DNA from: a virus
Taxonomy: Duplodnaviria > Heunggongvirae > Uroviricota > Caudoviricetes
DNA: 22,176 nucleotides
Virus record (IMG/VR): IMGVR_UViG_2585427971_000007
Span: 1-22,176 of that record
Strand: one strand, 5' to 3'
A program made the position numbers and the translations under genes. The stretch's first letter is position 1, and each line of letters begins with the position of its first letter. The notes below the pieces were generated by a model. It had not been told where the DNA came from. It was given only the letters and a program-made list of their open reading frames with translations, and ran no database searches. Below are positions 1,133 to 21,834 of this stretch, in pieces.

Positions 1133-2149
1133 TCATTTTCTCTGGCCACCAACTACGGGCACTACTTTAACTTTCCGGTCATATGCTGCTGTCTGTCGCG
1201 GGTTCTTATGCCCGGAAATTGCTTGCTTCTCTTCCAGGCTGCCTTCCAGATCAGAGATACCTTTTGCTTTCAGATCATGAAATGTGAAGTCTATTTGCAG
1301 ATGAGGATATTTTTCCTGTGCTGCCGCTTTGACATCACGCCAACGAGAGTTAAAACCATCACGGGTATACTTGCCACCGGTAGTTTGATGAATCACAAAC
1401 AGGCTACTGATTCCCGTTTTTAATGGCAGAGAACGAGCCAGAGCTATCGCTTTCTGCAGACGAGGCGACCAGGCTTTGATTTGCTTAACGCCGGTTTTTC
1501 CCTGACGAATGTAGATCCCGGAATCGAACAGCTGGTCTTTCTGCAATGAAAGTACATCACTCTGTCTGGCCACGCATAAGTAGGCAATCTCCATTGCTAC
1601 GCGAACAACATCAGGAGACACTTCATAAACGGCCTGATATTCTTCATCCGTAATATAACGTTCGCGAGCTTTCTCTTTAAACTGTTTAACTCCCTGACAA
1701 GGATTCCTCTGAACATAACCTCGTTCATAACCCCAACGGAATACCCGGGACATAAAGCTTTTTTCCCTGTTTGCCTGAGTTCGGCTTGATAAACCGCGTT
1801 GATCCATATAGCGCCGAATATGTTCAGGTTTGATTTTATCCGGGTCGATCTTCCCGAAGACAGGCAGAACTTTTCCGGAATATTTTGTGTAGTCTTTCCG
1901 GGTTTCGACTGCCAAATCCATAAAATCAGGGGAGGTCATGAATTGTTCCGTGAGCGCCTGAAAAGTATTTCTTTCTTTTTCGTCACCGACCGCTTTTTCA
2001 TATGCCAGCCATACGGCTGATCGTGGTGCATCCAATGCGCACAGGCGTATCGCTTTGTTATCTTTATTCCTGAATTCGTAGGCCGCTTTGCCCTGGTAAA
2101 CACGAGGCGGCATCCAGTTATCTGCTGGGTTCTTTCTCTTTCCGGCCAT
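1133..2149 (-). CDS. Tyrosine recombinase, lambda-family phage integrase
   Basis: ORF with N-terminal basic arm-binding-type region (MAGKRKNPADNWMPPRVY) and C-terminal catalytic motifs (GKTGVKQ, HDLKAKG, GHKNPRQTAAYDR with the Tyr); start set at the ATG at 2149 by analogy with lambda Int; the longer ORF runs to 2179. Confidence 0.9.
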   Translation of the reverse strand: MAGKRKNPADNWMPPRVYQGKAAYEFRNKDNKAIRLCALDAPRSAVWLAYEKAVGDEKERNTFQALTEQFMTSPDFMDLAVETRKDYTKYSGKVLPVFGKIDPDKIKPEHIRRYMDQRGLSSRTQANREKSFMSRVFRWGYERGYVQRNPCQGVKQFKEKARERYITDEEYQAVYEVSPDVVRVAMEIAYLCVARQSDVLSLQKDQLFDSGIYIRQGKTGVKQIKAWSPRLQKAIALARSLPLKTGISSLFVIHQTTGGKYTRDGFNSRWRDVKAAAQEKYPHLQIDFTFHDLKAKGISDLEGSLEEKQAISGHKNPRQTAAYDRKVKVVPVVGGQRK

Positions 2150-2381
2150 TAAATATTGCTCCAAAATCAGGTTCATCATCTTTTCGCGTCGTCACCTCCT
2201 GTAAATTGCGAAATTTTATTGGGTTCATGAAATGGCCCCAGGTTGTTTTTGGGTGTCCGTCAGCCCTTTCCATGAAGAAAATTCCAGCCCGGCGAAGAGC
2301 CTCACATTGCTTTGATTTAAGTGGGCTTCCCGTCAGCTCGACCATTTCTTCTCTGGTGATTATGTCGTGATCGCTTTTCAT
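2118..2381 (-). CDS. Excisionase-like small DNA-binding protein
   Basis: 87-aa ORF immediately upstream of and overlapping the integrase start; RBS GAGGAAAGACC directly before the ATG. Confidence 0.6.
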   Translation of the reverse strand: MKSDHDIITREEMVELTGSPLKSKQCEALRRAGIFFMERADGHPKTTWGHFMNPIKFRNLQEVTTRKDDEPDFGAIFNGRKEKEPSR

Positions 2382-2541
2382 GGTCTTTCCTCATTATGTA
2401 GCTTATTGCGTCATCTGCCTTCTGGCAGGCACGGGCAATATCAGACTCGGTCAAAGTCTGTTTCCTGACGCTGGCCGACAGTCGACCAATTTTGATATCA
2501 AATGCGGAGAGCAGAGTTGCTCCCGGTTGCCATCGCAGCAT
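2317..2541 (-). CDS. Hypothetical small protein (74 aa from the ATG at 2541), C-terminus overlaps the xis start in another frame
   Basis: ATG at 2541 preceded by a GGAGG Shine-Dalgarno; basic low-complexity C-terminal tail makes the call uncertain. Confidence 0.4.
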   Translation of the reverse strand: MLRWQPGATLLSAFDIKIGRLSASVRKQTLTESDIARACQKADDAISYIMRKDHEKRSRHNHQRRNGRADGKPT

Positions 2542-2590
2542 TGTGATCCTCCGGTGTCTGGTGAATCGCAATGCTAGCGATGGTGAGTTT

Positions 2591-2773
2591 TTATTTCTGA
2601 TTAGGCGTAATCAGTTCTTGTGGGGTGAATGCCGATTTCTCCCGAGTGACCTTAATGTTTTCTGGCAGGTGTAGCCCAAGTTCGCAGCGGCTCCGTGCTT
2701 CAATAATGCCATTGGTACCATCGGCAAGTACCAGGTGAACCGCGTCACCACGCTTTAATGTGAGTTTAAGCAT
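2591..2773 (-). CDS. Hypothetical small protein (60 aa)
   Basis: Start codon overlaps the stop of the upstream 189-aa gene (ATGA overlap), suggesting translational coupling. Confidence 0.5.
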   Translation of the reverse strand: MLKLTLKRGDAVHLVLADGTNGIIEARSRCELGLHLPENIKVTREKSAFTPQELITPNQK

Positions 2774-3342
2774 TAGCGTATCCTCAGTGACCGTTCGCCG
2801 CGTTCCAGATGTGCGCCTGGTACCGGGTTTAATAACTCGGCTGGTGGTGTTTCTCCACGCGCCAGTATTTCGGCGGCAACCGCCTCCGCAGATTCAATCA
2901 CTTCTTTAATGGCTCGCTTGTTTGGTGTAATAACCGTTTCTACATCAACAAGTGACACGCCCTCATACTCATCCGGGATCTTATCTTTGCTATCGATAAT
3001 TACCCGGATAGCCCCCTGTGCATCAGTAAATGTGTTTTTTGCGGTTTTCAGTTTATCCAGGCCAGCAGCTTGCAGGCAGGTGAGCATATGCTTTCGAATT
3101 GCTTTTTCCTTGCCTTCAAAGGACGTCTTACGGGTTGCCAGGCGAGACATTTCTTCAGCGCAGGTATTGGCATTGCCCTGTAAATTACGGCAGATGACCA
3201 TCATGGCGTCCAGTTTGTCTCCCAGTTCTCCTTCCATGCCTTCAAGCGTGTCGGCGATCATCTCTGGCGTCAGTTCATCGGCGGTTTCTAACAGGTCAAT
3301 CAGACTGGCATATTCTTTTGCAATAGCGATAGCAGTGCTCAT
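2773..3342 (-). CDS. Phage early protein, Gam / Gp157-like (putative host-nuclease inhibitor); family assignment tentative
   Basis: 189-aa acidic protein with coiled-coil-like N-terminus; AGGAG RBS; start overlaps the stop of the upstream annealase gene; resemblance to Mu Gam / siphovirus Gp157 judged from memory only. Confidence 0.55.
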   Translation of the reverse strand: MSTAIAIAKEYASLIDLLETADELTPEMIADTLEGMEGELGDKLDAMMVICRNLQGNANTCAEEMSRLATRKTSFEGKEKAIRKHMLTCLQAAGLDKLKTAKNTFTDAQGAIRVIIDSKDKIPDEYEGVSLVDVETVITPNKRAIKEVIESAEAVAAEILARGETPPAELLNPVPGAHLERGERSLRIR

Positions 3343-5555
3343 GCTGTTTGCTCCTGTGCAGCGGTAAGGGCGGCGAGGCGTTCAGTTTTAATGTCGGTGA
3401 TACGGCGCAGACGTGATCCCAGATACGATGAATATTCTTTATCGCCTTTGGTTTCCGCTGCTTTCCTGTGTACATCCACTTCGCGGGCGATGAGGCCAAA
3501 TACCTTGTTTACTTCGTTGGCGGTTACCGCGGCGGCCAGCGTATTGGCAACGTTGATAAGCTTCTCATCCAGTTCCTTACGCAGACGGGTAGCATCTTCC
3601 GCATTCTCGCTGGCATTCTTGATATCAAACTCAGCTTTATTCCTCTGGCGGTATTCCGGATTGTCGTACAGGCCCATGAAAATATCGGCGCTGAATCCGA
3701 GAGGGGATAGCGCTTTCTTAACAGCATCCGTCCAGGATTTCTTCGGTGCTTCGCCGTCGCTTGTTGGTCCGTATTTAGTGTCGTAGATATAAGGTGTGCA
3801 TCCGTAAGCCTCGGACTCACCGCGTACCCCATTCAATATGTACCAGACTCTCACTTTCATGGTGTGGTGCATTTCACATAGGTACCCGCCAACACCGTCT
3901 TGAATCAGATCCCATTCTATTTTTTCACCAACCTGTTTTTTGCGAACTATTGGTGCGCCTTTATCAAAGCGCTCCTCCAGCACCTCTACCCCCCAGCCAA
4001 TACCAAATGGCCCAAATTCGCGAGTCGCTTTCATCGCTATATAAGTGCCGTTGATGGATGTGCCGCCGCCATTCTGAGAGAAAGCACTGGTGAAGCGCTC
4101 ATCGGTTTTGAATACGTTCTTCCACAATGCCAGGTTATCCGTGTCATCTGAGTCCTTTAACTCCGTTTCGATAGCTGAGATTGCATTCTGCCGCTTGTGC
4201 TCTTCGGCATGGATCCGCTCAACCAGCGCGTCAACGTTCTGCACCAGATCCTTTACCTGCTCGCTAAGTTGTTCTTGTGGAGGAGTCTCTTCTGCCAGGG
4301 TAATAGCTGCAGGTTCCCTCTGTGATACGGCGTTATTTTCAGGTACGTCATACACATGGCGAGGCGTGACAAACTGCTCACGCAACTGCTGCAAACTACG
4401 TTCTCCAGCATTTGCAGCTTCGCTTTTTTCGCCCTGATTTGAGGGTGTTTCTGACATCATCCCATCAATTGAGAATCGTCCGCCGCCGTGGTTGGTGACT
4501 TTTACATCATCCTTGGGTGCTGCTTCCTTTGGCTTCTCTTCAACAGCATTTGCATCACGCTGCCCGTTAGCTTGCAGCCAGTTGTCGATGTGACTGCGCA
4601 GGGATTGTGGGAAGTGGTACGTGTCTTTTGCGGGGGCGCTCTGAATAACACCGAATACTGATGCGCGGTCATAGGCAAGGATCTGATCCGTTGTGCGCAA
4701 GGCCATTGACCAGCGTTTAAAATCTTCCCTGTCCTGACTGATTATTTCGTCTGCCGCTTTCAGGATGCTGGGGGTGATTTTTTCCGGGGCAACAGGTAAC
4801 AGGGCGCAGGCAATTTCACGATCCAGAGTGGCGTGAGTCTGTTTGTAAGGACGTGCGGATGCTGTTTCTGGTTTTACCTCCGGCAGCATTTCATCTCGTT
4901 TACCGGGATTCTCTACCCATTTTTTTATAAATTTGGAGATAGTCCAACTGGTCGGGTTTTGTTCCTGGGTATCGCAACTTGCCAAAATTGCATGTACCAG
5001 ATTATTCAATCCAGCAATATGCATGTACTCGATGGGCTTACACGCCACCATGGCATCAAGAACGATGCGGTTAAACGCGTCAACCTCATCCTCACTGTCA
5101 GTATCACTGTTATCGAGCATCTCCAGGTATTCACGCGTCTGCACAAGCAATTCACTGTCGACTTCGTTGGCGTCGTGGCTGAACAGCAGAACGGCGGCGA
5201 ATCGTTCACGAGCCGGCAGTTTCATCAGGTCGCTAACCTGTGAGATATCTGCTGAACTGCAATCTGAATCAACAGGAGTGTTAACTACCCATTTTTCGCC
5301 ATCAAAACTGTGTTCTGTGGCAAACGTCTCATCAAACTCACCGACGCCTGGGCGCGGTTGGCCCGGGGCATCTTCCCAGATTTTAGGTTTGAAATAGTTG
5401 TCGCCGTGGTCAGGGTAGGCTTCCCACAATTTGCCGATGATGATGTTCTCGGCAACTTTTTTGTTAGGGGCGGCGATGGCGATGGCCAGCGCCGGGATCG
5501 CGCCGTTTTTGAGCGCGCCTTTTTTCGCTTCTAACAAGCCGTTAAAAATGGTCAT
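3339..5555 (-). CDS. Large early protein: N-terminal ~470 aa of unknown function fused to a C-terminal Rad52/Sak-like single-strand annealing domain
   Basis: 738-aa ORF with RBS GAGGAAAGACC; residues ~490-635 carry Rad52-family hallmarks (GGG...FGPFGIGWG ... GESEAYG ... TDAVKKALSPLGFSADIFMGLYD). Confidence 0.75.
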   Translation of the reverse strand: MTIFNGLLEAKKGALKNGAIPALAIAIAAPNKKVAENIIIGKLWEAYPDHGDNYFKPKIWEDAPGQPRPGVGEFDETFATEHSFDGEKWVVNTPVDSDCSSADISQVSDLMKLPARERFAAVLLFSHDANEVDSELLVQTREYLEMLDNSDTDSEDEVDAFNRIVLDAMVACKPIEYMHIAGLNNLVHAILASCDTQEQNPTSWTISKFIKKWVENPGKRDEMLPEVKPETASARPYKQTHATLDREIACALLPVAPEKITPSILKAADEIISQDREDFKRWSMALRTTDQILAYDRASVFGVIQSAPAKDTYHFPQSLRSHIDNWLQANGQRDANAVEEKPKEAAPKDDVKVTNHGGGRFSIDGMMSETPSNQGEKSEAANAGERSLQQLREQFVTPRHVYDVPENNAVSQREPAAITLAEETPPQEQLSEQVKDLVQNVDALVERIHAEEHKRQNAISAIETELKDSDDTDNLALWKNVFKTDERFTSAFSQNGGGTSINGTYIAMKATREFGPFGIGWGVEVLEERFDKGAPIVRKKQVGEKIEWDLIQDGVGGYLCEMHHTMKVRVWYILNGVRGESEAYGCTPYIYDTKYGPTSDGEAPKKSWTDAVKKALSPLGFSADIFMGLYDNPEYRQRNKAEFDIKNASENAEDATRLRKELDEKLINVANTLAAAVTANEVNKVFGLIAREVDVHRKAAETKGDKEYSSYLGSRLRRITDIKTERLAALTAAQEQTA

Positions 5556-5585
5556 TGGTCTTTCCTCATTACAGGTCAGTGGTTT

Positions 5586-5906
5586 TTAGTAGGGGAGCTC
5601 ATCGGTATCTGGCGTGTATTCGATGCAAAGTAACTGCTGGATTTTGTCATCGATAGCAGCAATACGCTGTTGGGCGTCGGCGACTGTTTTCTGTTTTTGT
5701 TCACGCAGTTGCTCGACCTGTAAACCGATGATGTCGATTGGCTCGGGCTGGTTAACGGTAATTTCAATTTCGCGGCTTTCCAGAAGGATGTACCTGTCTG
5801 GAAAATTTTTTGACATATCAACAGTCGCAACAAGCAGCTTTTCGTGGCTGAAAGTTGAAGTTGCATAATGAATAAAGAGTGTTACTGGGATGGTGCGCGC
5901 TTCCAT
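5586..5906 (-). CDS. Hypothetical phage early protein (106 aa)
   Basis: ATG preceded by an AAGGAG RBS; first gene of the leftward early operon. Confidence 0.6.
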   Translation of the reverse strand: MEARTIPVTLFIHYATSTFSHEKLLVATVDMSKNFPDRYILLESREIEITVNQPEPIDIIGLQVEQLREQKQKTVADAQQRIAAIDDKIQQLLCIEYTPDTDELPY

Positions 5907-6759
5907 AGCGACTCCTTGGTAATGTATACTCAGAGCCGATCAGCGAATATTGATCAGCTTCCATAGCGTCAGTGTCGTTGGTCTTTCCTCATCACAAGTT
6001 TGGTCACTTGTGATAAATCCGAATGGTTTGGTCGCCGTTCGGGGTAACTGGCCCGCCTTGTGCGGGTCTTTTGCTATCTAAAGGGTGCCGGTTACGTTTC
6101 CGGCGTCGTTATGTTTCCATTACGACCGTACAGGGCTGGTCAGGCCCGGGCTGGTCTTTCCTGTTTTGAGCTGGTCAGGCTCATGGTCAACGCTGGTCAG
6201 GCGTGGTACTTCCTCCGGTCTTTCCCTGGTGTCACGCTGCGGGTTTGGCCTCTCCTGTTGGGGACTCAGGCACAGCGATAAAACCTGGCTGTGTGAAAAA
6301 ATGGCCCATCGTGCGGACTGGGCAAAGACTAAACACAGCAAATTGATGATGGGCGCCCGGAATCGAACCGGGTAACGGGCAGGGAGTTCCCGTTAAACAC
6401 CTGTTCACCACAACCGGGAGCGCACTCCGCCATTTCAAAATTTAACGACAAAGCTCAAAGTTGAGTCGATGAAGTGCGCTCTCGTGTTGTAGCCAGGACT
6501 CTTCCCTGGTGGTCACACCGTATCGCCTTGATGGTGAATCAATCGCTCATACCTGGCTGTGGCTTGCACATTCCGGCTACCTGCTATGGAGACAACGCGT
6601 TAAGGCTCCGCTTCCATCCAGACCGCTTCGACACATGTGCCATATGCCGGTGAAGTCTTTCCCTCTGTCACCGTGTTGGCGCCGACGCGCAAAATTTGGT
6701 GCCGTCTTTCCGGCTGTCAGAACGTGTTTCTGAACAACTGCCGCTGGGTAAGCGTTGTT

Positions 6760-6870
6760 GATGAAAGTGACTTTACAATTTGTATTTGTAATGGTCAATG
6801 TGTTTTTAAAAAATAATTTGTAGTGAGGGGCAAAAAAATATTCACTGTGTAAAGGTGTTTTTGTGTTAGG
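6760..6870. promoter_or_regulatory. AT-rich putative OL/pL-type operator-promoter region downstream of the repressor gene
   Basis: Repeated TTTGTA(A/T) motifs (caatttgtatttgtaatgg, aataatttgtagtgagg) resembling those between the repressor and cro genes. Confidence 0.4.
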
Positions 6871-6995
6871 GGAAAGTTGCATGCCAGCAGCGGCTGGCCT
6901 GGAAATTTGAACTGAACTATTTTGTCTGGTTTTTGGCTTCAAGTAGTTCTTTTAGCAGTAGATCGAAGTGCTCTCTTTTTCTTTTAGCTCATTGA

Positions 6996-7328
6996 TTAAT
7001 TTATTTTTTCGCTCTCAGGCAGTCCTCTGAATAGTTGCAGTAGAGCCTGTTCTTGCGGGGTTAGTTCTTGATTGTAATTACCCGGGTGTAGTGTGGATTC
7101 ATCCAAATATTCCCCTTCATTCATGAAGAAAAAATGAACAGGGTATCCGGTCACTTTTGCTAGCTTGTCTAATTTATCTTTTCTTGGAGTTACCCCATTA
7201 CACCATGCCTGAACTGATTGAGCCGTAACCCCAATATGGCGAGCTAACTCAGATTGAGACCAGCCTAAGTCTTTTAGAATCCGTTGTAGTCGGCTAGCAA
7301 AAGCCATGTTTTTCGTTTTTGTGTTCAT
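6996..7328 (-). CDS. Phage repressor, short XRE-family helix-turn-helix protein with no peptidase domain
   Basis: HTH signature WSQSELARHIGVTAQSVQAWCNG; divergent from a Cro-like gene; start uncertain (alternatives at 7343 TTG, 7328 ATG, 7307 ATG). Confidence 0.8.
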   Translation of the reverse strand: MNTKTKNMAFASRLQRILKDLGWSQSELARHIGVTAQSVQAWCNGVTPRKDKLDKLAKVTGYPVHFFFMNEGEYLDESTLHPGNYNQELTPQEQALLQLFRGLPESEKIN

Positions 7329-7343
7329 ACCGTAAGGATACAA

Positions 7344-7426
7344 GGTTTAATTGTAGGGAGCATTGCAAATATAATTTGTAATTACAGTTATTGTTTGTAA
7401 TGATGACGCGGACACAAGGAGTCCAT
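7344..7426. promoter_or_regulatory. Divergent promoter/operator region of the immunity switch
   Basis: Intergenic region between divergent repressor and cro genes with repeated TTTGTAAT motifs (aatttgtaattacag, ttgtttgtaatgatg) and TTGCAA -35-like hexamer. Confidence 0.55.
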
Positions 7427-7657
7427 ATGGATAAACAACTGCAAGACAAAATTCTTTCCGTAATGAGTCAATCCGAGTTAGGGCGGCGATTAGGGAAAAA
7501 ACCACAAACGGTAAGCCTCTGGTTCAAAGGACGGGTTCCCGGTGAAGAGGTTTTGCGCACATCTGAAGCTCTTGAATGGCGCGTGACCCCTCATGATCTT
7601 AGACCGGATCTTTACCCAAACCCAGATGACAGCTTGCCTAAAACGGAAGCAGCTTAA
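7427..7657 (+). CDS. Cro/Apl-like HTH regulator (76 aa from the ATG at 7427)
   Basis: AAGGAG RBS 5 nt upstream of the ATG; HTH motif SQSELGRRLGKKPQTVSLWFKG; divergent from the repressor. Confidence 0.8.
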   Translation: MDKQLQDKILSVMSQSELGRRLGKKPQTVSLWFKGRVPGEEVLRTSEALEWRVTPHDLRPDLYPNPDDSLPKTEAA

Positions 7658-7715
7658 CTGTTGGTGAGCCCCAAATCTGATTAAGCGTAATCAATTTTTA
7701 GCGACAGGAGACGCT

Positions 7716-8192
7716 ATGGAAAACCAAGAGGAATTACAAAAAGAGATTTTGACCTGGGCGGCAAGGGCAGGGCAGGAACTCGTCACGATTGAAATCTGCC
7801 GGGCCTGGTTCAGTCAGGGACGCAATGATGAGTTGAGACTACATGAATTTGAGGACGCGGACGGCAACGTGGACTGGAGAGCCATCAACAACAATCGGCA
7901 GAAAATCTTTCGCTGGTTACGTGGCGAGACAACGGCGGCGCGCCGAAAAACTCAGGTGCTGGCCAGTGTGATGAAAGCCGTGCTACCCGCAGAACGGCGG
8001 GCACGTCTGGAGTCGCCGGGCGATCCCGTTTTGCTGGCAACGCTGGCGGCAAAAGAAGGGGTGGAAGCGATTAACGCTGTACATCTCCACTTCGCGCCAG
8101 AGTTAACTATTCAGGAAATTGACGAAGCAATAGCGGCGCTGGTAGCGACGCGAGGAGCAGTGATACGCACTGCGCAAGACCACCATGCATGA
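7716..8192 (+). CDS. Phage regulatory protein, CII-like / YdaT-like (tentative)
   Basis: 158-aa ORF with AGGAG RBS directly downstream of cro; functional call rests on position in the switch operon only. Confidence 0.45.
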   Translation: MENQEELQKEILTWAARAGQELVTIEICRAWFSQGRNDELRLHEFEDADGNVDWRAINNNRQKIFRWLRGETTAARRKTQVLASVMKAVLPAERRARLESPGDPVLLATLAAKEGVEAINAVHLHFAPELTIQEIDEAIAALVATRGAVIRTAQDHHA

Positions 8193-8456: not shown

Positions 8457-8597
8457 ACATCCTCCCGTTACTTGATAGACCCATAGCCTTCCAGAGAAGT
8501 TTTATCCGTCTTGAAATGGTGATGCGCCGCGCGATAAATGCACTCTATCTTGTGCGATAAATGGCATCCACGCGGCGTTTCATTATTTGAAAAAGAA

Positions 8598-9170
8598 TTA
8601 CATTTCAGGTTGCGTTATGACAGTCCCAACAGGGTGATAGCGGTAGATCGTTGACAGTCCAATATCATAGATAATTGCCAGCCGCTTTCTGTCATACCCT
8701 TTCTGGAGCAATCTTGCGATCTGCTCATGCTGCTCCTTCGTCAGTTTCGGGCGACGTCCTCCAACTCTTCCTTGTGCTCGCGCAGCAGCCAGTCCTGCCA
8801 GCGTGCGCTCAACTATCAGTTCACGCTCCATTTCTGCCAGTGCACCCATCATATGAAAAAAGAACCTTCCCATCGGAGTGCTGGTATCGATTGAATCCGT
8901 CAGACTGCGAAAATTGACACCTTTTGCGCGTAGCTCTTCTGTGAGAGCAATGAGGTGTTTCATTCTTCTACCCAACCGATCCAGCTTCCAGACCACCAAT
9001 GTATCCCCTCTTTTAAGGCACTTTAAAGCGCGTTTCAGGCCTGGTCGTTCCGACTTGGTTCCGCTCATTTTGTCCTCAAAAATCTGTTCACATCCTGCGC
9101 ACATTAATGCATTGCGTTGCAAATCTGTGTTTTGGTCATTTGTTGACACACGTATGTAGCCAATCAGCAT
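8598..9170 (-). CDS. Serine DNA invertase, Pin/Gin/Hin/Cin family (190 aa)
   Basis: N-terminus MLIGYIRVSTNDQNTDLQRNAL with catalytic Ser and a C-terminal HTH; AAGGGAG RBS; lies adjacent to the invertible fibre segment; start set at the internal ATG at 9170 rather than the longer ORF to 9299. Confidence 0.92.
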   Translation of the reverse strand: MLIGYIRVSTNDQNTDLQRNALMCAGCEQIFEDKMSGTKSERPGLKRALKCLKRGDTLVVWKLDRLGRRMKHLIALTEELRAKGVNFRSLTDSIDTSTPMGRFFFHMMGALAEMERELIVERTLAGLAAARAQGRVGGRRPKLTKEQHEQIARLLQKGYDRKRLAIIYDIGLSTIYRYHPVGTVITQPEM

Positions 9171-9226
9171 TAAAAATACTCCCTTTTGAGTGGTTAAAGT
9201 ACTGAGATAATGTGGGGAGGATTTGA

Positions 9227-9252
9227 GAGATAAACGTTGGTTTGGGGGAAGG
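9227..9252. promoter_or_regulatory. Putative invertase crossover site, left (gix/hix-like)
   Basis: Junction where inverted-repeat identity begins; reverse complement reads tcccccAAACCAAcgtttatctctc, resembling Din-family sites (AAACC..GGTTT). Confidence 0.5.
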
Positions 9253-9436
9253 CTCTGCACTGCCTGTTGGTGTGCCTGTTCCATGGCCCACCGCCACACC
9301 GCCAGCAGGCTGGTTAAAGTGCGACGGGCGCGCCTTTACAAAAGAACAATATCCTGTTCTGGCCAGAGTCTACCCGACCCTCCGTCTTCCCGATTTACGC
9401 GGTGAGTTTATCCGTGGATGGGACGACGGGCGCAAG
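9237..9436. repeat. Inverted repeat, left copy (~200 bp, 3 mismatches in the first 50 bp, otherwise identical) encoding the shared part of the fibre C-terminus
   Basis: Direct comparison with the reverse complement of 10656-10852. Confidence 0.9.
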
Positions 9437-9715
9437 ATTGACGAGGGGCGTAAGTTGCTTTCATGGCAGAAAGGTACACTGGTCGGCGGTCATGACGATA
9501 ACGATTCTTCGCTTGATATCTCGTACATGAGTAACGGAAATAATATTGACTATGGCGGCGATAAGGTGTTTGCGGGGAATTACCGTAGCGATTATTTGTG
9601 GTACGTAATTCTGGGAGGAACAAACAGTCGCGCAAAAGCCGAATTAAACGGAGCATTCTTTAACATAACCCGCCCCCGCAATATCGCGTTTAACTATATC
9701 GTGAGGGCGGCGTGA
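9242..9715 (+). CDS. Alternative tail-fibre C-terminal cassette (promoterless, silent in this orientation)
   Basis: First ~62 aa identical to the corresponding part of the expressed fibre (GEGSALPVGVPVPWPTATPPAGWLKCDGRAF...), then divergent; ends with the conserved NYIVRA motif; opposite strand to the fibre. Confidence 0.8.
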   Translation: MGEGSALPVGVPVPWPTATPPAGWLKCDGRAFTKEQYPVLARVYPTLRLPDLRGEFIRGWDDGRKIDEGRKLLSWQKGTLVGGHDDNDSSLDISYMSNGNNIDYGGDKVFAGNYRSDYLWYVILGGTNSRAKAELNGAFFNITRPRNIAFNYIVRAA

Positions 9716-9721
9716 TACCGT

Positions 9722-10336
9722 TCAACTGGCAAGTGCCAGTGGCGCTTCCGGCCAGCTGATTTCAGGTGCCGTGCTGATATCCAGTGCGTTCAGCTCGTCG
9801 ATATAATCCAGCACGGCGTTCAGTTTTGCCGTTTCTTCTGGTGTCAGACTGCGACCAGCACGCAGTTTGAGGTTGATAAGATCGACTGACGCCATCGCCT
9901 GTTTCACCCGTTGCTGGCGTTGCTGTCTGGCAACCTCCAGTTCTGCGGCTCGCTGCCGTTCAGTATCGGTTACCCACGCCTCACCGTTCCAGGTATCCCA
10001 TGGCGTGGCTGGCTGTTTTGTGGTGGTGTCCGCCGGGTAATCACCCGGTTGGGTAATCAGAACAGGGTTACCGTTCTCCGTGCTGTATACCGTCTCGCCG
10101 CGGTGATCAGGCACATGCTCCCACCCGTTCAGCGTGGCAGTCCGGCAAACCACGTAACCCGAAATTGCCTCCGGCGGTGCATCGGCGCACGAATGTGCCG
10201 GAGTACCCACCCCAAGGGCGAGATACTCCACAGAGGATGAGGTGTATTCCCGGGTTTCCTCGTCATAGTGATATACAGTGATATCGCCCGCTACAGTGGC
10301 GATACCGTTTTCATCCAGAACTGCAGTGTTACTCAT
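9722..10336 (-). CDS. Tail fibre assembly protein (P2 gpG / Mu U-like)
   Basis: 204-aa ORF whose start overlaps the fibre stop (TAATG); position and composition typical of assembly chaperones. Confidence 0.8.
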   Translation of the reverse strand: MSNTAVLDENGIATVAGDITVYHYDEETREYTSSSVEYLALGVGTPAHSCADAPPEAISGYVVCRTATLNGWEHVPDHRGETVYSTENGNPVLITQPGDYPADTTTKQPATPWDTWNGEAWVTDTERQRAAELEVARQQRQQRVKQAMASVDLINLKLRAGRSLTPEETAKLNAVLDYIDELNALDISTAPEISWPEAPLALAS

Positions 10337-12345
10337 TAAACTGCCCTCACAATGTAATTAAGTGCAATGCTACGGGGTCTGACAGTGATACCCTTCGCAT
10401 ACCCGCTTCTGATAGAGGTCAGAATAGTAGCCTGCATACCATTGTCTGACATTGCCACGACAGGATCGCTGAATGTTGTCCCGTCCGGCATTTTAAAGCT
10501 GCCCTCACGAAGGTCTGTAATGGAATCTTCATTGTTGAATCCCATGCCGACTATCCCCGAGGTTCCCGTAGTGTCCTGGTTATAATAATCCAGCATTGCT
10601 GTTCTTAACAGCGTTGCCCCTTGTGCGGACAGCAACTTACGTCCTGTATCAACTTTGCGCCCGTCGTCCCATCCACGGATAAACTCACCGCGTAAATCGG
10701 GAAGACGGAGGGTCGGGTAGACTCTGGCCAGAACAGGATATTGTTCTTTTGTAAAGGCGCGCCCGTCGCACTTTAACCAGCCTGCTGGCGGTGTGGCGGT
10801 GGGCCATGGAACCGGTACACCAACAGGCAATGCAGAGCCTTCCCCCAAACCAAGGTAATTGAGGACATCTTTTATACTGCCCTTAGCGATAATAGCGCGA
10901 CCAATAGCTGTAAGGGTTGCCAGCGCTGCGCGGTCTGCTCCGGTAAAATAAGGCAACCGATCTGCTGCAGTGGCAAGTCCTGCCAGAGCAGTGAGCGTGG
11001 CATCTGCCGGTTGTTTTCCGTTTGCCAGATCGTATGCAGCCTTGACCGCTTTCGGTGTGGCGGCCAGTATTTCAGACGTGCTGTTGATAGCACTGCTCAG
11101 TTGTACGGTGCCTTTTGCCGTCAGCGAGGCAGCAGGCACTCCCGTTATCTGACTCCACGGGTGAGTGTGGCTGACGGGCGCCTTGCCGGCTGCAAGGTCG
11201 TATGCAGCCTTGACCGCCTTCGGCGTGGCAGCCTCAATTTCTGATTGACTGTCCGTGGCGCTGCTCAGTTGTACGGTGCCTTTTGCCGTCAGTGAAGCCG
11301 CAGGCACTCCCGTTATCTGACTCCACGGGTGAGTGTGGCTGGCAGGCGCCTTGCCGGCTGCCAGGTCGTATGCAGCCTTGACCGCTTTCGGTGTGGCGGC
11401 CAGTATTTCAGACGTGCTGTTGATGGCACTGCTCAGTTGTACGGTGCCTTTTGCCGTCAGCGAGGCAGCTGGCACTCCCGTTATCTGACTCCACGGGTGA
11501 GTGTGGCTGACGGGCGCCTTGCCGGCTGCAAGGTCGTATGCAGCCTTGACCGCCTTCGGCGTGGCAGCCTCAATTTCTGATTGACTGTCCGTGGCGCTGC
11601 TCAGTTGTACGGTGCCTTTTGCCGTCAGTGAAGCCGCAGGCACTCCCGTTATCTGACTCCACGGGTGAGTGTGGCTGGCAGGCGCCTTGCCGGCTGCCAG
11701 GTCGTATGCAGCCTTGACCGCTTTCGGTGTGGCGGCCAGTATTTCAGACGTGCTGTTGATGGCACTGCTCAGTTGTACGGTGCCTTTTGCCGTCAGCGAG
11801 GCAGCTGGCACTCCCGTTATCTGACTCCACGGGTGAGTGTGGCTGACGGGCGCCTTGCCGGCTGCAAGGTCGTATGCAGCCTTGACCGCCTTCGGCGTGG
11901 CAGCCTCAGTTTCTGATTGACTGTCCGTGGCGCTGCTCAGTTGTACGGTGCCTTTTGCCGTCAGTGAAGCCGCAGGCACTCCCGTTATCTGACTCCACGG
12001 GTGAGTGTGGCTGGCAGGCGCCTTGCCGGCTGCCAGGTCGTATGCAGCCTTGACCGCTTTTGGTGTGGCGGCCAGCGTTTCAGAGGTGCTGTTGGTGGCA
12101 CTGCTCAGTTGGGTGAACCCCTTAGCTGTCAGTGTCGCGTCCGGGTGGTTACGGGAACGTACGTGTTCAGCCAGTGACTGTGCGGCTTCCTCCGTTTTCT
12201 TCTTCAGCCATTTCGTCCTGTTTGCCAGTTGCCGGGGGGCTCGATTTGATATCCCGTCTGCACCACCCAGAACCGGATCTGATGTCTCCAGTTGATAGAT
12301 ATTTTCTTCCCACTTTTCTGTTTCATTCAGGTTTCCCATAATCAA
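10336..12345 (-). CDS. Tail fibre protein (P2 gpH-like), C-terminus lying in the invertible segment
   Basis: 669-aa ORF; N-terminus and the motif HPDATLTAKGFTQLSSATNSTSETLAATPKAVKA recalled from P2 gpH-type fibres; internal tandem repeats. Confidence 0.9.
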   Translation of the reverse strand: MIMGNLNETEKWEENIYQLETSDPVLGGADGISNRAPRQLANRTKWLKKKTEEAAQSLAEHVRSRNHPDATLTAKGFTQLSSATNSTSETLAATPKAVKAAYDLAAGKAPASHTHPWSQITGVPAASLTAKGTVQLSSATDSQSETEAATPKAVKAAYDLAAGKAPVSHTHPWSQITGVPAASLTAKGTVQLSSAINSTSEILAATPKAVKAAYDLAAGKAPASHTHPWSQITGVPAASLTAKGTVQLSSATDSQSEIEAATPKAVKAAYDLAAGKAPVSHTHPWSQITGVPAASLTAKGTVQLSSAINSTSEILAATPKAVKAAYDLAAGKAPASHTHPWSQITGVPAASLTAKGTVQLSSATDSQSEIEAATPKAVKAAYDLAAGKAPVSHTHPWSQITGVPAASLTAKGTVQLSSAINSTSEILAATPKAVKAAYDLANGKQPADATLTALAGLATAADRLPYFTGADRAALATLTAIGRAIIAKGSIKDVLNYLGLGEGSALPVGVPVPWPTATPPAGWLKCDGRAFTKEQYPVLARVYPTLRLPDLRGEFIRGWDDGRKVDTGRKLLSAQGATLLRTAMLDYYNQDTTGTSGIVGMGFNNEDSITDLREGSFKMPDGTTFSDPVVAMSDNGMQATILTSIRSGYAKGITVRPRSIALNYIVRAV
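10656..10852. repeat. Inverted repeat, right copy (partner of 9237-9436)
   Basis: Reverse complement matches 9237-9436. Confidence 0.9.
10841..10866. promoter_or_regulatory. Putative invertase crossover site, right (gix/hix-like)
   Basis: tcccccAAACCAAGGTaattgagga at the boundary between the constant fibre region and the inverted repeat. Confidence 0.5.
11010..12140. repeat. Tandem array inside the fibre gene: ~6.7 copies of a 168-bp (56-aa) unit in two alternating variants (336-bp super-period)
   Basis: Protein repeats ASLTAKGTVQLSSA..ATPKAVKAAYDLAAGKAP(A/V)SHTHPWSQITGVP; plus-strand shadow ORFs recur every 336 bp with identical sequence. Confidence 0.9.
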
Positions 12346-12920
12346 CTGCTCCCGTGGTTATAACTGCCATCATGGATGGCGGTATTGTTATAGCGAATGG
12401 CCACAGACTGATACTCCAGGCTGGCCAGATGGCAGCGGGCCGGTGCAAATGCAGCCAGCGTCTGACGCAGCATCGCGGCCTGATCGTTAGTAATGGGCTG
12501 TTTCAGAATAACGCGATAAACTGCCCAGGCGGCTGCATCTCCATGAACAAACAGTCCGTTATAGCTGCGATTGCCGTCGTAACTGAGACGACCTGTGCCT
12601 TCAATCAGATCCACTTCACCAAAGCCAAAACGGCGGATAACTTCCCGGATTGACCACGGCGTCCCTTTATACCGGTGCAGTTCGATGGCTGCTTTTATAA
12701 GCATGCGGCGAACATCGTCCGATTCCGCCAGCTCCCAGCCATCGCCAGACAGTGAGAACTGCTCGCCCAGCCATGGCAGCGCAGAACTGTCGACGATATC
12801 GACGAGAAAGACCATCAGTACGCTCAGGTCGATGTTATCCAGCCGTCCTGCCAGTCTTCCCAGCGTCCTGAGACTGATATCACCCTCAAGCGGTGGCGGG
12901 AGTTGTAATGGCTCAGTCAT
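12342..12920 (-). CDS. Baseplate/tail protein, P2 gpI-like
   Basis: 192-aa ORF overlapping the fibre start; motif LPWLGEQFSL...KGTPWSIREVIRRFG; synteny V-W-J-I-H-G. Confidence 0.8.
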   Translation of the reverse strand: MTEPLQLPPPLEGDISLRTLGRLAGRLDNIDLSVLMVFLVDIVDSSALPWLGEQFSLSGDGWELAESDDVRRMLIKAAIELHRYKGTPWSIREVIRRFGFGEVDLIEGTGRLSYDGNRSYNGLFVHGDAAAWAVYRVILKQPITNDQAAMLRQTLAAFAPARCHLASLEYQSVAIRYNNTAIHDGSYNHGSS

Positions 12921-14016
12921 CAGACACTCCAGTCATGTTAAGAGTGATTGCCGTACAGTTTGCCCATTCGTTTTCTGCCACCACCCTCAGTGCCGGTGTC
13001 ACCAGTTCAACCTGGTACACCCCGGAAACGGACAATGCACTGATAATCTGGCTGGGGACAATATCACGCCCCAGCGTGGCGGCACGTGATGCCACCCAGT
13101 TCTGTATGGCGCTGTTAGCGGCATCTTTTACAGACCTGGCATCCTGATCACGATAGATCGTAATCCTGGCTTCAATGGTGTAATCCACCTTCACTGGTGT
13201 TTTAGCCCGCACTGTATCAGTGAGTGGCCTGACTTTCTCATCAGAGCAGAAACTCTCTACCAGCGTGAGAACACCGCCGTCCGGCAGACCGGTACTGAGC
13301 AGCGGATACAGATCTACGGTCCCGGGAACCGGGGAAAGCACAGCAACATCGACAATGTTGGGATGGGCCTGCATGGCATGAAAGCGGTATGCGCCACGGC
13401 TTCCGGCATTGGTGAATGACTCCGGGGCCAGCCTGATACGCTCCCGGAGCCTGTCATCGTCTTCCTGTTCTGAACCGCCGGAACTGGCCGTCAGATTGCT
13501 CACCAGCAGGTCGACGTTATCAATCTCATCGAGTAACTGACTGACCTGCGCAGGTTGCCAGCCGTTACCAGCGGTACCGGGTTCGGTACAGGTGGACGTG
13601 ACATTGACCAGCAGCAATCCGGCCTTCAGTACCACATCTGTATCGGTGGCAAAAATAACGCTGTCGGAAGCGCTGACGCGGGTGCCTGCCGGGATCAGCA
13701 CATCAATGGCCAGTGCCTCATCTACGGAGAACTGGAGCGTGGTGGTGGCAGGCTGCGCGGCAAGACGGTATACACCAACCAGTTCACCGAGGTAATCAAT
13801 CATCGGCTCACGGGCAAAGGCGACCAGATTCTGCTTTGCTGCCTCCTGTACCGCAACCCTGACCAGCATTTCGCGATAGGCCCACAGATCAATCAGCAGA
13901 CGTTCTGCCTGTGCCGGGTACAGCGTTTTGCCGGTATCCGCTTCATACTTCGCAATCATTTCTGCCGTGATTTTGTCGGCATCGCGTTCAATAAAATCGG
14001 GTTCTGTCAGCGCCAT
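12913..14016 (-). CDS. Baseplate protein, P2 gpJ-like
   Basis: 367-aa ORF between the gpW-like and gpI-like genes with overlapping start/stop. Confidence 0.8.
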   Translation of the reverse strand: MALTEPDFIERDADKITAEMIAKYEADTGKTLYPAQAERLLIDLWAYREMLVRVAVQEAAKQNLVAFAREPMIDYLGELVGVYRLAAQPATTTLQFSVDEALAIDVLIPAGTRVSASDSVIFATDTDVVLKAGLLLVNVTSTCTEPGTAGNGWQPAQVSQLLDEIDNVDLLVSNLTASSGGSEQEDDDRLRERIRLAPESFTNAGSRGAYRFHAMQAHPNIVDVAVLSPVPGTVDLYPLLSTGLPDGGVLTLVESFCSDEKVRPLTDTVRAKTPVKVDYTIEARITIYRDQDARSVKDAANSAIQNWVASRAATLGRDIVPSQIISALSVSGVYQVELVTPALRVVAENEWANCTAITLNMTGVSDD

Positions 14017-14354
14017 AGCAGCTCCTGAGTCCGGGTCTGTCCGTCTGAGCCTTTCCAGCTCACCCGGAGCGTAAGATGTTCGCCGTCGACGGCGGGTTTA
14101 ACTGACATAAGCTGGCAGCGGGGCTCCCAGCGCCGGATGGCATCGACGGATTCGCGCACCACATGCGGAATGGCCCGGTCTACAGGCCAGTCGATATAAA
14201 GATGCAGATTGCTGCCGAACTCCGGGCGATGCGGGTCGCTGCCGCGGGGAGTCCGCAGGATAATTTGAATCGCCTGCCGGATATCATCCAGCCCCCGGAC
14301 AATTTCGCCGGGAGCCTGCAGGGCTGGTTGCCAGAATACTGAGGTCGTTTTCAT
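14007..14354 (-). CDS. Baseplate wedge protein, P2 gpW / T4 gp25-like
   Basis: 115-aa ORF with motif RGSDPHRPEFGSNL...AIRRWEPR. Confidence 0.8.
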   Translation of the reverse strand: MKTTSVFWQPALQAPGEIVRGLDDIRQAIQIILRTPRGSDPHRPEFGSNLHLYIDWPVDRAIPHVVRESVDAIRRWEPRCQLMSVKPAVDGEHLTLRVSWKGSDGQTRTQELLWR

Positions 14355-14408
14355 GGGGGCAGTATTGCCCCCGTGCGGGAACGCTGATATTAAAGGCGTT
14401 TAAGAAGC

Positions 14409-15005
14409 TCAGTGGGAGTGGTGGCTGGAGTTTTCGCCATCAGACAGCATACTGCCCGTGGCATGGGCATTCCCTTTAATCTCGATATTGCCATGGATGG
14501 TCGCGGTAACACCTTTACCACCAGAACCCGCCATGCCTCCTTCGTAAATCAGCTTTCCCCTGACACGCAGATCTCCGGTAAGTTCGGTTTCCGGTGCGTC
14601 AATCGTGGCTTTCTGTGTTTTCAATACCACATCAGCACCACACTCAATGACAATATGCTCAATGCCGCCCCGGATGGTCAGAGTGTGCGTCTTCCGGTTG
14701 TAGCTGTACTCTGCACCATCAGCAAACCGGGTTCCCCGGATATTTTTGTCACTGAACGGTGGTTTATCGACGTCTGAATACACCGCGCCCAGAATAACAC
14801 CATCCTCGCCGTTGGCATCGAGCAGCACCTCAACCTGCTCCCCCACGTCAGGGAGCCAGTAATCTTTGTTATCCTGGGTATTACGCTGCAGCACGTTAAG
14901 CCAGTTTGTGCGCAGGTTATCGCATTCAGGCAGACGAACGCGGGCCTGAACCCTGTCGGCATCAACGGCACTGACCGTACCGACCTGACGAGTGACACCA
15001 GTCAT
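14409..15005 (-). CDS. Baseplate spike protein, P2 gpV-like
   Basis: 198-aa ORF with His-rich C-terminal tip (SSHHSH); position upstream of the gpW-like gene. Confidence 0.8.
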   Translation of the reverse strand: MTGVTRQVGTVSAVDADRVQARVRLPECDNLRTNWLNVLQRNTQDNKDYWLPDVGEQVEVLLDANGEDGVILGAVYSDVDKPPFSDKNIRGTRFADGAEYSYNRKTHTLTIRGGIEHIVIECGADVVLKTQKATIDAPETELTGDLRVRGKLIYEGGMAGSGGKGVTATIHGNIEIKGNAHATGSMLSDGENSSHHSH

Positions 15006-16156
15006 TTTTTCTTCTCCTTAATCACCGTCGATGTACTGCCATCCGGGTGATAAACCGTGAGTTTCTGAGTTTTTTGTTTTTTCCCTCTTGTGACTGGCCC
15101 CCGTGCCACTTCCAGCTCTGTGGTGTAGCCGCTGTTACGGTCAAACGCATGGCGGGCAGTGGTTATGAGCCATGGCCCGGATAACTGCCCAAAACCCACC
15201 AGTTCAATTTTGTTGCCTGCTGTCAGTTGAGGTGTTCCCGTCAGCGTCAGGGAGCCGTTCTGCTGGTATTCGTTATGTCTGGCCAGTGCTGAATCCGCTT
15301 TAATCCGGGCACTGTCCGGGTCGCTGACGCGGCTGTTAACTTTAAGTGAGTCAGCGCTGGTAACCTTACCACCTTTGAGCTTTTTGTCGCTTTCACGGGT
15401 ACCACCATCAGCTTCGTAGACGATCAGTTTTTTACTGCTGCTTTTCTGGTGTTTTACCTTTGCAGATTTATAGACCCGGTTGATGGTGTCACGCAGGGAA
15501 AAGCGGGCCACATCCTGCGGTTTTAACTGCCTGACCGTCTCCTGACTGCGCAGTGTGGCCAGATGAGAAAAAATCAGCTGGTCACTGACCACTTTCACTG
15601 CATAACCATACTCGCTGGCCAGCCGGCGCAGAAAACCCACGTCGGTTTCAGCATACTGGGTCACCCGGTCGATTCTGATGGACTCAATGCTGCCCACCAG
15701 TTTCAGCCGGTGCTTTCTGGCAATCCGCCCCGCAACAGCTGCCAGCGTGGTGTTCTCAAAACCACGGCTGGATTTAGTCCGCAGAGCACTGTTAACCGAG
15801 GTGGCCACCCCACGGATAGAAACAACGGAAGCGGGCGAACTCACTTCGATCTCGTCTATAGAGAACGTACCGCAGGACAGCAGCTTCTCGCCCTGATAGC
15901 CCATTTTCAGCGTCAGCGTGTCACCCTTGCCCGGATACCACTTATCCAGCCAGCGGCCATCGGTGTCGTCCAGCTCCACCTCAATGGTATCGGACTCATT
16001 TTTGATGTTATCGCTCCAGGTCACACGGGTGACATAAGGCGCGATATCAGAGGTGATGTTTTTCTGCAGATACCACAGAGTGAACACCGGTGTCAGCACA
16101 TCGCTGACGCCGGTTAACGCTGATGTGACTTGCGCAGTGCTGTTTATCTCAGCCAT
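15002..16156 (-). CDS. Tail protein, P2 gpD-like (late control D family)
   Basis: 384-aa ORF, size and position consistent with gpD. Confidence 0.75.
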   Translation of the reverse strand: MAEINSTAQVTSALTGVSDVLTPVFTLWYLQKNITSDIAPYVTRVTWSDNIKNESDTIEVELDDTDGRWLDKWYPGKGDTLTLKMGYQGEKLLSCGTFSIDEIEVSSPASVVSIRGVATSVNSALRTKSSRGFENTTLAAVAGRIARKHRLKLVGSIESIRIDRVTQYAETDVGFLRRLASEYGYAVKVVSDQLIFSHLATLRSQETVRQLKPQDVARFSLRDTINRVYKSAKVKHQKSSSKKLIVYEADGGTRESDKKLKGGKVTSADSLKVNSRVSDPDSARIKADSALARHNEYQQNGSLTLTGTPQLTAGNKIELVGFGQLSGPWLITTARHAFDRNSGYTTELEVARGPVTRGKKQKTQKLTVYHPDGSTSTVIKEKKK

Positions 16157-16359
16157 GGGGCAATATCCTCTTCTGTACGGGCTTCTTCAGTCTCAATCAC
16201 CGGGATCAGTAACAACAGCCCGGAGGGCAGCACCGGCGTGATGGCCACGTGCGGATTGGCGGCAATAATCCGGGGATAGCCCAGCGGGTCACCGTAGTAC
16301 TGCCATGCCAGCGAATCCCAGCGCTCTCCGTCACGGGTAACATGTTCAAGAAACATCAC
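16144..16359 (-). CDS. Tail protein X-like (LysM-like, P2 gpX)
   Basis: 71-aa ORF with motif DSLAWQYYGDPLGYPRIIAANP. Confidence 0.75.
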   Translation of the reverse strand: MMFLEHVTRDGERWDSLAWQYYGDPLGYPRIIAANPHVAITPVLPSGLLLLIPVIETEEARTEEDIAPWLR

Positions 16360-17240: not shown

Positions 17241-17491
17241 CAGCGGTACTCCTTACGTTGTTTCTGAGCCAGCAGACGCTCCAGCATTTTTTCCAGCTCA
17301 TGCAGGCTCATATTCAGGGCGCCAGTCAGTCCGGCAGGCGCTGTGGTTTCCCTGCCATTGAGGAAAAACTGAGGATTAAAGCTGACCTGGATACCACCAG
17401 ACGTTCCACCGCCGGTTGCAGCTGCACCACGGCCTGAATATCCGGCAGCCAGGATTTCAGGCGAGGGGATACGGGGAACATCCGGTGTCAT
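17240..17491 (-). CDS. Small hypothetical tail-module protein (83 aa), Gly/Ala-rich
   Basis: Start overlaps the tape-measure stop (ATGA); low-complexity composition lowers confidence. Confidence 0.45.
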   Translation of the reverse strand: MTPDVPRIPSPEILAAGYSGRGAAATGGGTSGGIQVSFNPQFFLNGRETTAPAGLTGALNMSLHELEKMLERLLAQKQRKEYR

Positions 17492-20451: not shown

Positions 20452-20526
20452 AGTGGTTAACCTCCGGGGAAGGTGAAAAGACGTGAGGGGATAACGCAGA
20501 ACAGCCGCTACTGGCGGCTGTCTGTA

Positions 20527-20630
20527 CTATGATTTGTCGCCGTACTCGCTTTTTATTTGCTCTTCAGCCTGCTCCAGCCACATCTCCAGATCGTCAGTAT
20601 CGAGGGCATCAATCTCCCCCGGCTGAAACC
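20527..20630 (-). other. Putative frameshift extension (E'-like) of the tail assembly chaperone
   Basis: Second frame stays open past the chaperone stop and encodes an acidic tail (DALDTDDLEMWLEQAEEQIKSEYGDKS); G-run CCGGGGGAG followed by UGA at the overlap. Confidence 0.55.
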
Positions 20631-20944: not shown

Positions 20945-21041
20945 GATTGTGCTCCTGTGTAAGTTCAGGGCAGTATGTCGGGAGAAGCGCGTGACGGATA
21001 TTAAAGGAGATTAAGAAGAAGGGGCCGGAGCCCCTGTGATG

Positions 21042-21290: not shown

Positions 21291-21324
21291 CGTCCTCCTT
21301 TATCCGTCAGTTCAACACTCACCG

Positions 21325-21816: not shown

Positions 21817-21834
21817 TTCGTGATGCGGTTTATC

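Follow-up and report, generated by a model that had tools for sequence, protein, structure and literature searches.

A probable Rad52-type phage annealase carried on a RecE-type N-terminal scaffold in an Escherichia coli prophage

The question addressed here is what is encoded by a 738-amino-acid open reading frame (ORF) on the minus strand (3339–5555) of the viral record IMGVR_UViG_2585427971_000007. The whole stretch that was analysed, positions 1 to 22,176 of that record (22,176 nucleotides), is referred to as the window; it is Escherichia coli chromosome with a prophage inserted beside pgsA and three tRNA genes. A preliminary description made from the sequence had reported Rad52/Sak-type signatures in the C-terminal third of the protein, joined to an N-terminal part of ~470 amino acids in which no motif could be recognised. 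The present analysis indicates that the fusion is real, widespread and either unannotated or mis-annotated, and that it is a Rad52-type phage annealase on a RecE-type N-terminal scaffold. The protein is probably an SSAP (single-strand annealing protein) belonging to the Rad52 superfamily, with a large non-catalytic N-terminal adaptor. Judged from the ORF list, the translation and the match to phrog_2489, the whole gene specifies a RecE-N-like scaffold, a linker, a Rad52-like annealase domain and a helical tail.

The ORF is uninterrupted from ATG to TGA over 738 codons, and a Shine-Dalgarno-like AGGAAA lies upstream of the ATG. The identical 738-amino-acid protein is present on at least 1000 public contigs, and, of 5426 complete E. 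coli genomes, 462 (~8%) contain the DNA of the gene with 95–100% identity. An intact ORF of such wide occurrence is therefore no chance ORF. The PGAP name in those E. coli genomes is always 'hypothetical protein', while the whole protein matches phrog_2489 over its full length, a family that PHROGs labels 'exonuclease'. Pfam returned no hit for the full-length protein at E < 0.1, PDB sequence searches with the whole protein and with a C-terminal profile gave noise only, and PADLOC gave no defence-system hit for the fusion protein or its five neighbours. A literature search found no paper describing this fusion. In at least six complete E. coli genomes the gene is interrupted by ISEc52, an IS3-family element, and the match falls into two pieces with a span of ~3.5 kb.

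The Rad52-like C-terminal domain

A homology search with amino acids 461–738 yielded 68 proteins. Many of these are stand-alone proteins of 240–280 amino acids that start at about amino acid 474 of the fusion, which is also the start of the conserved block; the earlier remark that the fusion is far longer than phage annealases is borne out by this comparison. The Rad52 signal was seen only when this C-terminal family was scanned member by member: Pfam Rad52_Rad22 (PF04098) gave a sub-threshold match in 26 of the 32 aligned members (best E 8e-5), and the homologue from Vibrio D96a reached 19.3 bits against a cut-off of 20.3. The family alignment contains the motif DGEAPKKSLTDAxKKALSxLGFSADIFxG, which is similar to the signature helix of RAD52. 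As judged by sequence profile, the fusion protein is a member of a divergent Rad52 subfamily and not a curated one.

The AlphaFold2 model of the C-terminal region, made with the family alignment, is confident, with a mean predicted local distance difference test (pLDDT) score of 91. In order, it comprises one helix, a beta-sheet that is long and curved, another helix and three long helices. The elements that define the fold of the Rad52 N-terminal domain (a beta-hairpin, a beta-sheet and a bridging helix) are all found in the model of amino acids 474–632, and its best fold match is to the annealing-competent RAD52 and Mgm101. This part of the protein (3660–4136, minus strand) includes the signature helix with K613 and K614 and is the predicted core for annealing single-stranded DNA (ssDNA), while amino acids 633–738 (3342–3659, minus strand) make up the three-helix tail. 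In an hhalign comparison of the family profile with residues 1–212 of human RAD52, RAD52 47–175 was aligned with an E of 6.6e-4, and K152/R153 fell on K613/K614. In RAD52, K152 and R153 are basic residues of the inner DNA-binding groove. Among 32 homologues K614 is invariant and K613 is at least 90% conserved. The alignment is gapped around R55/Y65 of RAD52, where a 'TK' of the family may match R55 and the fusion protein has 'TS'.

Taken together, the fold and the motif indicate that amino acids 474–632 form a divergent Rad52-superfamily annealase core, which would be expected to anneal DNA. The signatures first noticed in the C-terminal third are thus supported by sub-threshold Pfam matches, a confident predicted fold and the K613/K614 alignment. 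Compared with RAD52/Mgm101 (PF04098) and the Sak-type SSAPs, the fusion protein is distant: its identity to RAD52 is ~16% and its score is below the Pfam gathering score, and neither RAD52 nor the known Sak proteins have the 470-amino-acid N-terminal extension or the three-helix C-terminal tail.

The N-terminal region and its relatives

The AlphaFold2 model of amino acids 1–470 shows three separately folded modules, followed by the linker and then a helix. Its confidence is moderate (pLDDT 68.7, predicted template modelling score 0.30, 27-sequence alignment); the alignment stayed shallow because further homology searches gave mostly fragments. Module A (amino acids 1–92; 5280–5555, minus strand) is a small alpha/beta domain. 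Module B (amino acids 107–225; 4881–5237, minus strand) is acidic and helical, with a net charge of −11 and predicted helices in 115–223, and the latter half of the module can be aligned with the RecE protein of phage SPN3UB. Module C (amino acids 234–336; 4548–4856, minus strand; pLDDT ~77–87) is helical and common to the middle of RecE. The acidic linker (amino acids 337–426; 4278–4547, minus strand) has a net charge of −6 and is predicted to be disordered, with a pLDDT of 30–43 and no secondary structure, and both its length and its sequence vary among homologues. It carries the motifs GGGRFSIDGM (amino acids 357–366) and SNQGEKSE (amino acids 372–379), encoded at 4419–4487 on the minus strand. 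A long single helix of ~42 amino acids (427–468; 4152–4277, minus strand; pLDDT ~78–92) then precedes the annealase domain. The extent of ~470 amino acids given at first agrees with an annealase start at about amino acid 474, and can now be refined to ~336 amino acids of modules, ~90 of linker and ~42 of helix. In some Salmonella-type homologues of 710–844 amino acids (P0006, P0012, P0014 and P0016), an extra insert of ~110 amino acids follows module B (alignment columns ~270–365). Over its first 40 residues this insert is similar to the beginning of module B (BLASTP E 7e-5, 40% identity), which suggests a module duplication.

Several comparisons relate this region to RecE and to a DnaQ-type protein. 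Positions 262–370 of NCBIfam PRK09709 (exodeoxyribonuclease VIII) match amino acids 233–336 with an E of 1.9e-12, and positions 275–371 of phrog_607, labelled 'exonuclease VII' (= RecE), match amino acids 232–327. By hhalign, amino acids 158–340 align to residues 184–381 of SPN3UB RecE (probability 98.4, E 5e-15), and amino acids 3–349 to residues 4–347 of the 823-amino-acid HannyBb 'exonuclease' (probability 99.6, E 1e-23). The profile search and structure prediction proposed for the N-terminus were thus carried out, and the region is not a routine known domain. The earlier statement that it holds no recognisable motif stands for Walker A and for a nuclease domain, but profile methods do place the region, as a homologue of RecE's N-terminal part outside the nuclease and of the N-terminal part of the DnaQ-type prophage 'exonucleases'.

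These matches bear on the label that the family carries in databases, according to which the fusion would be a RecE-type (exonuclease VIII) exonuclease. The label is given to phrog_2489, phrog_7838 and phrog_607, gp07 of phage ZF40 and the Vibrio homologues were deposited under it, and the exodeoxyribonuclease VIII match at amino acids 233–336 seems to agree with it. It is nevertheless very unlikely to be correct. The PRK09709 score is 46.1 bits, far short of the equivalog cut-off of 1269, and the match to RecE is limited to its non-nuclease N-terminal/middle region (184–381). Neither PD-(D/E)XK (DUF3799) nor DnaQ/Rv2179c was detected in the fusion, though both are readily found in true relatives; DUF3799/PD-(D/E)XK gave no hit in the fusion protein at E < 0.1 and an E of 1.6e-11 in SPN3UB RecE. 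No nuclease domain was found in the fusion protein by Pfam, NCBIfam or PADLOC, and a search for Walker A and HNH motifs was likewise negative. Where RecE has its nuclease, the fusion has a Rad52 fold, and its N-terminus has no conserved polar residue (see below). The 'exonuclease' label of phrog_7838 covers a family of stand-alone Rad52-like proteins, and is most likely an annotation that spread from RecE.

The likeness to RecE (Rac and Gifsy-1 prophages, phage SPN3UB) lies in the homology of amino acids 158–340 to RecE 184–381, in the position of the gene in the early-left operon beside xis and int, and in the linker motif, which is also found in some RecE-type proteins. SPN3UB RecE has Pfam Exonuc_VIII at amino acids 3–194 (E 4.5e-115) and PD-(D/E)XK at 786–950, whereas the fusion lacks both PD-(D/E)XK and PF06630 (Exonuc_VIII) and has a Rad52-like domain in place of the nuclease; the gene downstream is Gp157 for the fusion and RecT for SPN3UB RecE. 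PF06630 was not detected in the fusion protein at E < 0.1, but 28 of the 63 other N-terminal relatives have it. The DnaQ-type prophage 'exonuclease' (phrog_2082; 823 amino acids; HannyBb, Tritos and PPompW type) is homologous over N-terminal amino acids 3–349 and occupies the same operon position beside xis and int. It differs in having a C-terminal Rv2179c-like 3'-5' exonuclease (Pfam E 2e-67) and no Gp157 after it.

When amino acids 1–340 were searched with HMMER against 1.84 billion representative proteins, 136 relatives were found. Those of at least 400 amino acids have C-termini that are Rad52-like (~22), Rv2179c/DnaQ-like (11), PD-(D/E)XK (8–11) or of the phrog_26058 class (21). The last class comprises 21 clusters (e.g., P0255, P0265, P0267 and P0284) of 513–702 amino acids, with a C-terminal region that has no Pfam match. 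It was split off from the other unassigned relatives by stricter clustering on the last 180 amino acids, looser single-linkage clustering having merged their C-termini through linker motifs that they have in common. The same N-terminal region thus serves as a common scaffold, to which diverse DNA-processing domains have been joined by shuffling. In at least one relative, P0297, a Pfam Exonuc_VIII-type N-terminus is joined to a Rad52-like C-terminus, an architecture that indicates repeated domain shuffling. PF27430 is recorded by precomputed Pfam annotation on N-terminal fragments only.

The N-terminus is strongly acidic (net charge −18, isoelectric point 4.9). In 44 N-terminal relatives with 20–60% identity, conservation of 80% or more is confined to positions with Ala, Pro, Trp and Leu, with no polar residue among them. 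A hidden enzyme is therefore unlikely, and the N-terminal region is probably non-catalytic.

The linker pattern G.[GA].F[STD][ILVA][DE][GNS][LMF] was found in 25 of 87 representative relatives, distributed over the Rad52-like (9/22), PD-(D/E)XK (4/8), DnaQ (4/11) and other (8/46) C-terminal classes. By a rough estimate from amino-acid frequencies alone, about 0.005 chance hits would be expected. Short conserved motifs within disordered linkers are typical docking sites for a partner. Reading the linker by eye, no clamp-binding motif was found. A second linker motif, AA(A/E)RGEYVEGISDPNDPKWV, occurs in the linker of homologues of the Salmonella type and of RecE-type relatives (e.g., P0017 and P0324); it is common to some Rad52-type, RecE-type and other scaffold proteins and is absent from the copy in the window.

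The Gp157 partner and the cassette

Downstream of the fusion gene lies a gene for a 189-amino-acid Sipho_Gp157 family protein (2773–3342, minus strand). The neighbour suspected to be Gp157-like is confirmed as such by Pfam PF05565 (101 bits against a threshold of 28.6, E 9e-29). It belongs to phrog_253, labelled 'Mu Gam-like end protection'; a PDB sequence search with this protein found nothing, and nothing decisive on the function of Gp157 was found in the literature. The TGA stop of the fusion gene overlaps the start of Gp157 (ATGA), and the stop of Gp157 overlaps the start of a 60-amino-acid ORF of the same cassette (TAATG; 2591–2773, minus strand; phrog_2482, E 2e-36). Both overlaps suggest translational coupling.

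A Rad52-like gene followed by Gp157 was seen in seven contexts: the window, BUCT708, ZF40, L012, Yersinia prophages, PseuP_222 and Vibrio D96a. Gp157 was present after every stand-alone homologue whose downstream gene was scanned, which covers all of those examined but that of LKA5. This recurrent pairing implies that the Rad52-like annealase and Gp157 are a conserved functional unit, with the RecE-like N-terminus as an addition of the enterobacterial lineage. Stand-alone Rad52-like genes are found in Yersinia prophages (273 amino acids), Pseudomonas phage PseuP_222, phage LKA5, ~100 Vibrio phages and a Pelagibacter phage. The depositors of PseuP_222 named theirs a 'RAD52-like annealing protein' and those of the Pelagibacter phage a 'putative single strand-annealing protein'. 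In ~100 Vibrio phage records (e.g., L007, 3564–4334), stand-alone Rad52-like proteins of ~250 amino acids are named 'exonuclease', as is their family phrog_7838.

The existence of stand-alone genes raises the question of whether the fusion is accidental, i.e., whether separate RecE-like and Rad52-like genes were joined by mutation or assembly error without functional meaning. Split homologues, which the preliminary description had proposed looking for, do exist. In L012, a JGI genome with the same pgsA/tRNA attachment site, the gene is divided into one ORF of 429 and another of 281 amino acids, the second called from a TTG start. However, the split in this lone case is made by a single in-frame TAG (5971–5973) inside the pre-Rad52 helix, and is therefore derived from the fused form rather than ancestral. 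The fused architecture is found in ~22 clusters at 50% identity, with N-terminal identity down to ~21%, and also in the isolated phages ZF40 and BUCT708, and the P0297 architecture again speaks for repeated shuffling. An accidental origin is accordingly a most improbable explanation.

The interval from the cI-like repressor (6996–7343, minus strand) to the integrase (1133–2179, minus strand) contains no gene for an exonuclease, as had been said of the operon, and no nuclease is annotated in the complete 43.9-kb genome of BUCT708, which carries the same cassette. According to a 2025 survey (Zheng, Casjens et al., PMC12315714), a nuclease gene is absent from 84 of 246 lambdoid Rec modules; the missing exonuclease is therefore not exceptional. 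The survey also describes RecE-distant proteins without a nuclease domain and with roles unknown ('RecE-2'), and in its Table 1 ZF40 is the sole example with an anti-RecBCD gene only, having no annealase and no nuclease. Gp07 of ZF40 is, however, a full-length homologue of the fusion protein (34% identity, 99% coverage); its amino acids 449–714 match the Rad52-like profile (hhalign probability 100, E 8e-58), and gp06 is Gp157. That this family is one of annealases was thus apparently overlooked in the survey. 'RecE-2' may be the phrog_26058 class or the fusion family.

BUCT708 and BUCT709 (L002/L005) were reported on Stenotrophomonas maltophilia. Their early region is typical of enterobacterial prophages: besides an integrase and an excisionase-like gene of the DUF4224 type, it encodes a fusion protein that shares 69% identity with that of Salmonella. 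The assignment to a Stenotrophomonas host looks odd.

In the window, pgsA (1–549) and the tRNA-Gly, tRNA-Cys and tRNA-Leu genes (701–1002) are followed directly by the start of the prophage, with the tyrosine integrase and a DUF4224 excisionase-like gene (2118–2381, minus strand) as its first genes. The first ORF of the cassette, immediately upstream of the fusion gene, encodes 106 amino acids (5586–5906, minus strand; phrog_2479, E 6e-53) and is not homologous to the 103-amino-acid ORF upstream of the Yersinia stand-alone gene. In BUCT708 and L012, ORFs of 104–107 and of 58–61 amino acids take the positions of the 106- and the 60-amino-acid ORF, respectively; they were matched by size and position only. 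Cro-like YdaS and YdaT genes lie divergent from the cI-like repressor and beyond it. With the gene order running from the repressor through the fusion gene to int, the fusion gene is therefore at the usual site of the lambdoid recombination module, in the early-left operon.

Between the 106-amino-acid ORF and the repressor, ~1.1 kb (5907–6995) is without RefSeq annotation and without a convincing ORF. Terminator-like hairpins cluster there on the plus strand (6050–6158), and 20 terminator-like sites were observed in 2000–7800 against 7.7 expected. An Rfam scan of this ORF-free region gave sub-threshold matches only, among them a full-length RprA-like match at 6294–6404 (minus strand) that scores 37 bits where the gathering score is 70 (E 0.013). 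Beyond the early-right genes (YdaS-like, YdaT-like and a 74-amino-acid ORF), the window from 8460 to 22176 holds minus-strand late genes, including a DNA invertase (8598–9299) and genes for tail-fibre assembly, tail fibre, baseplate and tape measure. In strain SK1144, an identical early region runs on into replication genes that include a DnaB-type helicase. The window's prophage has therefore undergone rearrangement or deletion, or it represents another mosaic.

What the fusion may do and why it matters

If the fusion is an SSAP with an adaptor, its C-terminal domain would oligomerise on ssDNA and anneal complementary strands, and the annealing would be used in phage recombination, for circularising the genome or in recombination-dependent replication. 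Gp157 might protect DNA ends or block a host nuclease. Because the phage supplies no exonuclease, the ssDNA would have to come from host nucleases or from replication. The acidic N-terminal scaffold and the linker motif may tether the annealase to a common partner, either a host or phage protein or the DNA ends, and the same scaffold may tether the nuclease domains of the RecE-type and DnaQ-type relatives alike.

Some observations count against this reading. The score of the fusion protein itself on PF04098 is 13.5 bits, below the gathering cut-off of 20.3 (E 0.069), and the hhalign match to a single RAD52 sequence has a probability of only 27%. Annealing, ring formation and DNA binding are predicted solely from the fold and the motif. 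The adaptor role of the N-terminus is putative, and it is only from database labels that Gp157 is credited with acting like Mu Gam. The N-terminal model has no match among solved or viral structures, a negative that is weaker than it sounds as the model is only of moderate confidence.

A further explanation is that the Rad52-fold domain protects DNA ends or ssDNA in the way of DdrA, forming an anti-RecBCD complex with Gp157 and the acidic N-terminus, while recombination is left to the host RecA. DdrA of Deinococcus is a Rad52-family protein, and many DNA-mimic inhibitors are acidic, as the N-terminus is. Gp157 is labelled 'host-nuclease inhibitor' in addition to 'Mu Gam-like end protection'. 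Furthermore, Gifsy-1-type RecE+RecT modules are scored without a separate anti-RecBCD gene in Table 1 of PMC12315714, which, within that table, leaves room for such a function in the N-terminus of RecE. On the other hand, the best fold match is to annealing-competent RAD52 and Mgm101 with the basic pair of the DNA groove conserved, and the N-terminus was found to resemble neither lambda Gam nor Abc2 nor any other solved protein in sequence or structure, nor does it give a PADLOC hit. This explanation is rather unlikely, although it is the only one of the three rivals that keeps an appreciable probability, and annealing and end protection are not mutually exclusive.

The SSAP-with-adaptor reading can be extended in a more speculative direction. 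The RecE-type scaffold with its linker peptide GxGxFS[IV][DE]G[LM] could be a general targeting module that docks alternative DNA-end-processing domains (a 5'-3' nuclease, a 3'-5' nuclease, a Rad52-type annealase and the fourth domain, that of the phrog_26058 class) onto one partner, for example a recombination or replication factor of the host or a DNA end; this is a tentative proposal that we would not favour at present. If it were true, the fusion would be a self-targeting annealase, one that needs no exonuclease from the phage since it would recruit or neutralise a host enzyme of that kind. RecE in its full-length form boosts linear-linear recombineering, and the cause has long been unexplained; under the same proposal, the boost given by the RecE N-terminus would be explained in the same way. 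In the literature (PMC11611040), this non-nuclease part of RecE is described as being of unknown function. Since the scaffold and linker motif are also present on a nuclease-free annealase, the function of the RecE N-terminus is therefore not specific to the nuclease, and the nuclease-free fusion offers a simple system for finding the partner of this region. A Rad52-type annealase with its Gp157 partner is, in addition, a candidate recombineering tool.

The protein is carried by ~8% of complete E. coli genomes and by many Salmonella genomes, where it is named 'hypothetical' or, misleadingly, 'exonuclease'; homologues in Klebsiella, Pectobacterium, Vibrio and Pseudomonas phages are likewise mislabelled, as is the stand-alone phrog_7838. 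In surveys, such prophages would shift from having no annealase to being annealase-encoding, ZF40 in the 2025 survey being one example. This changes the inferences that are made on the dependence of phages on host RecBCD/Chi and on the Rad52-like recombinases behind prophage mosaicism.

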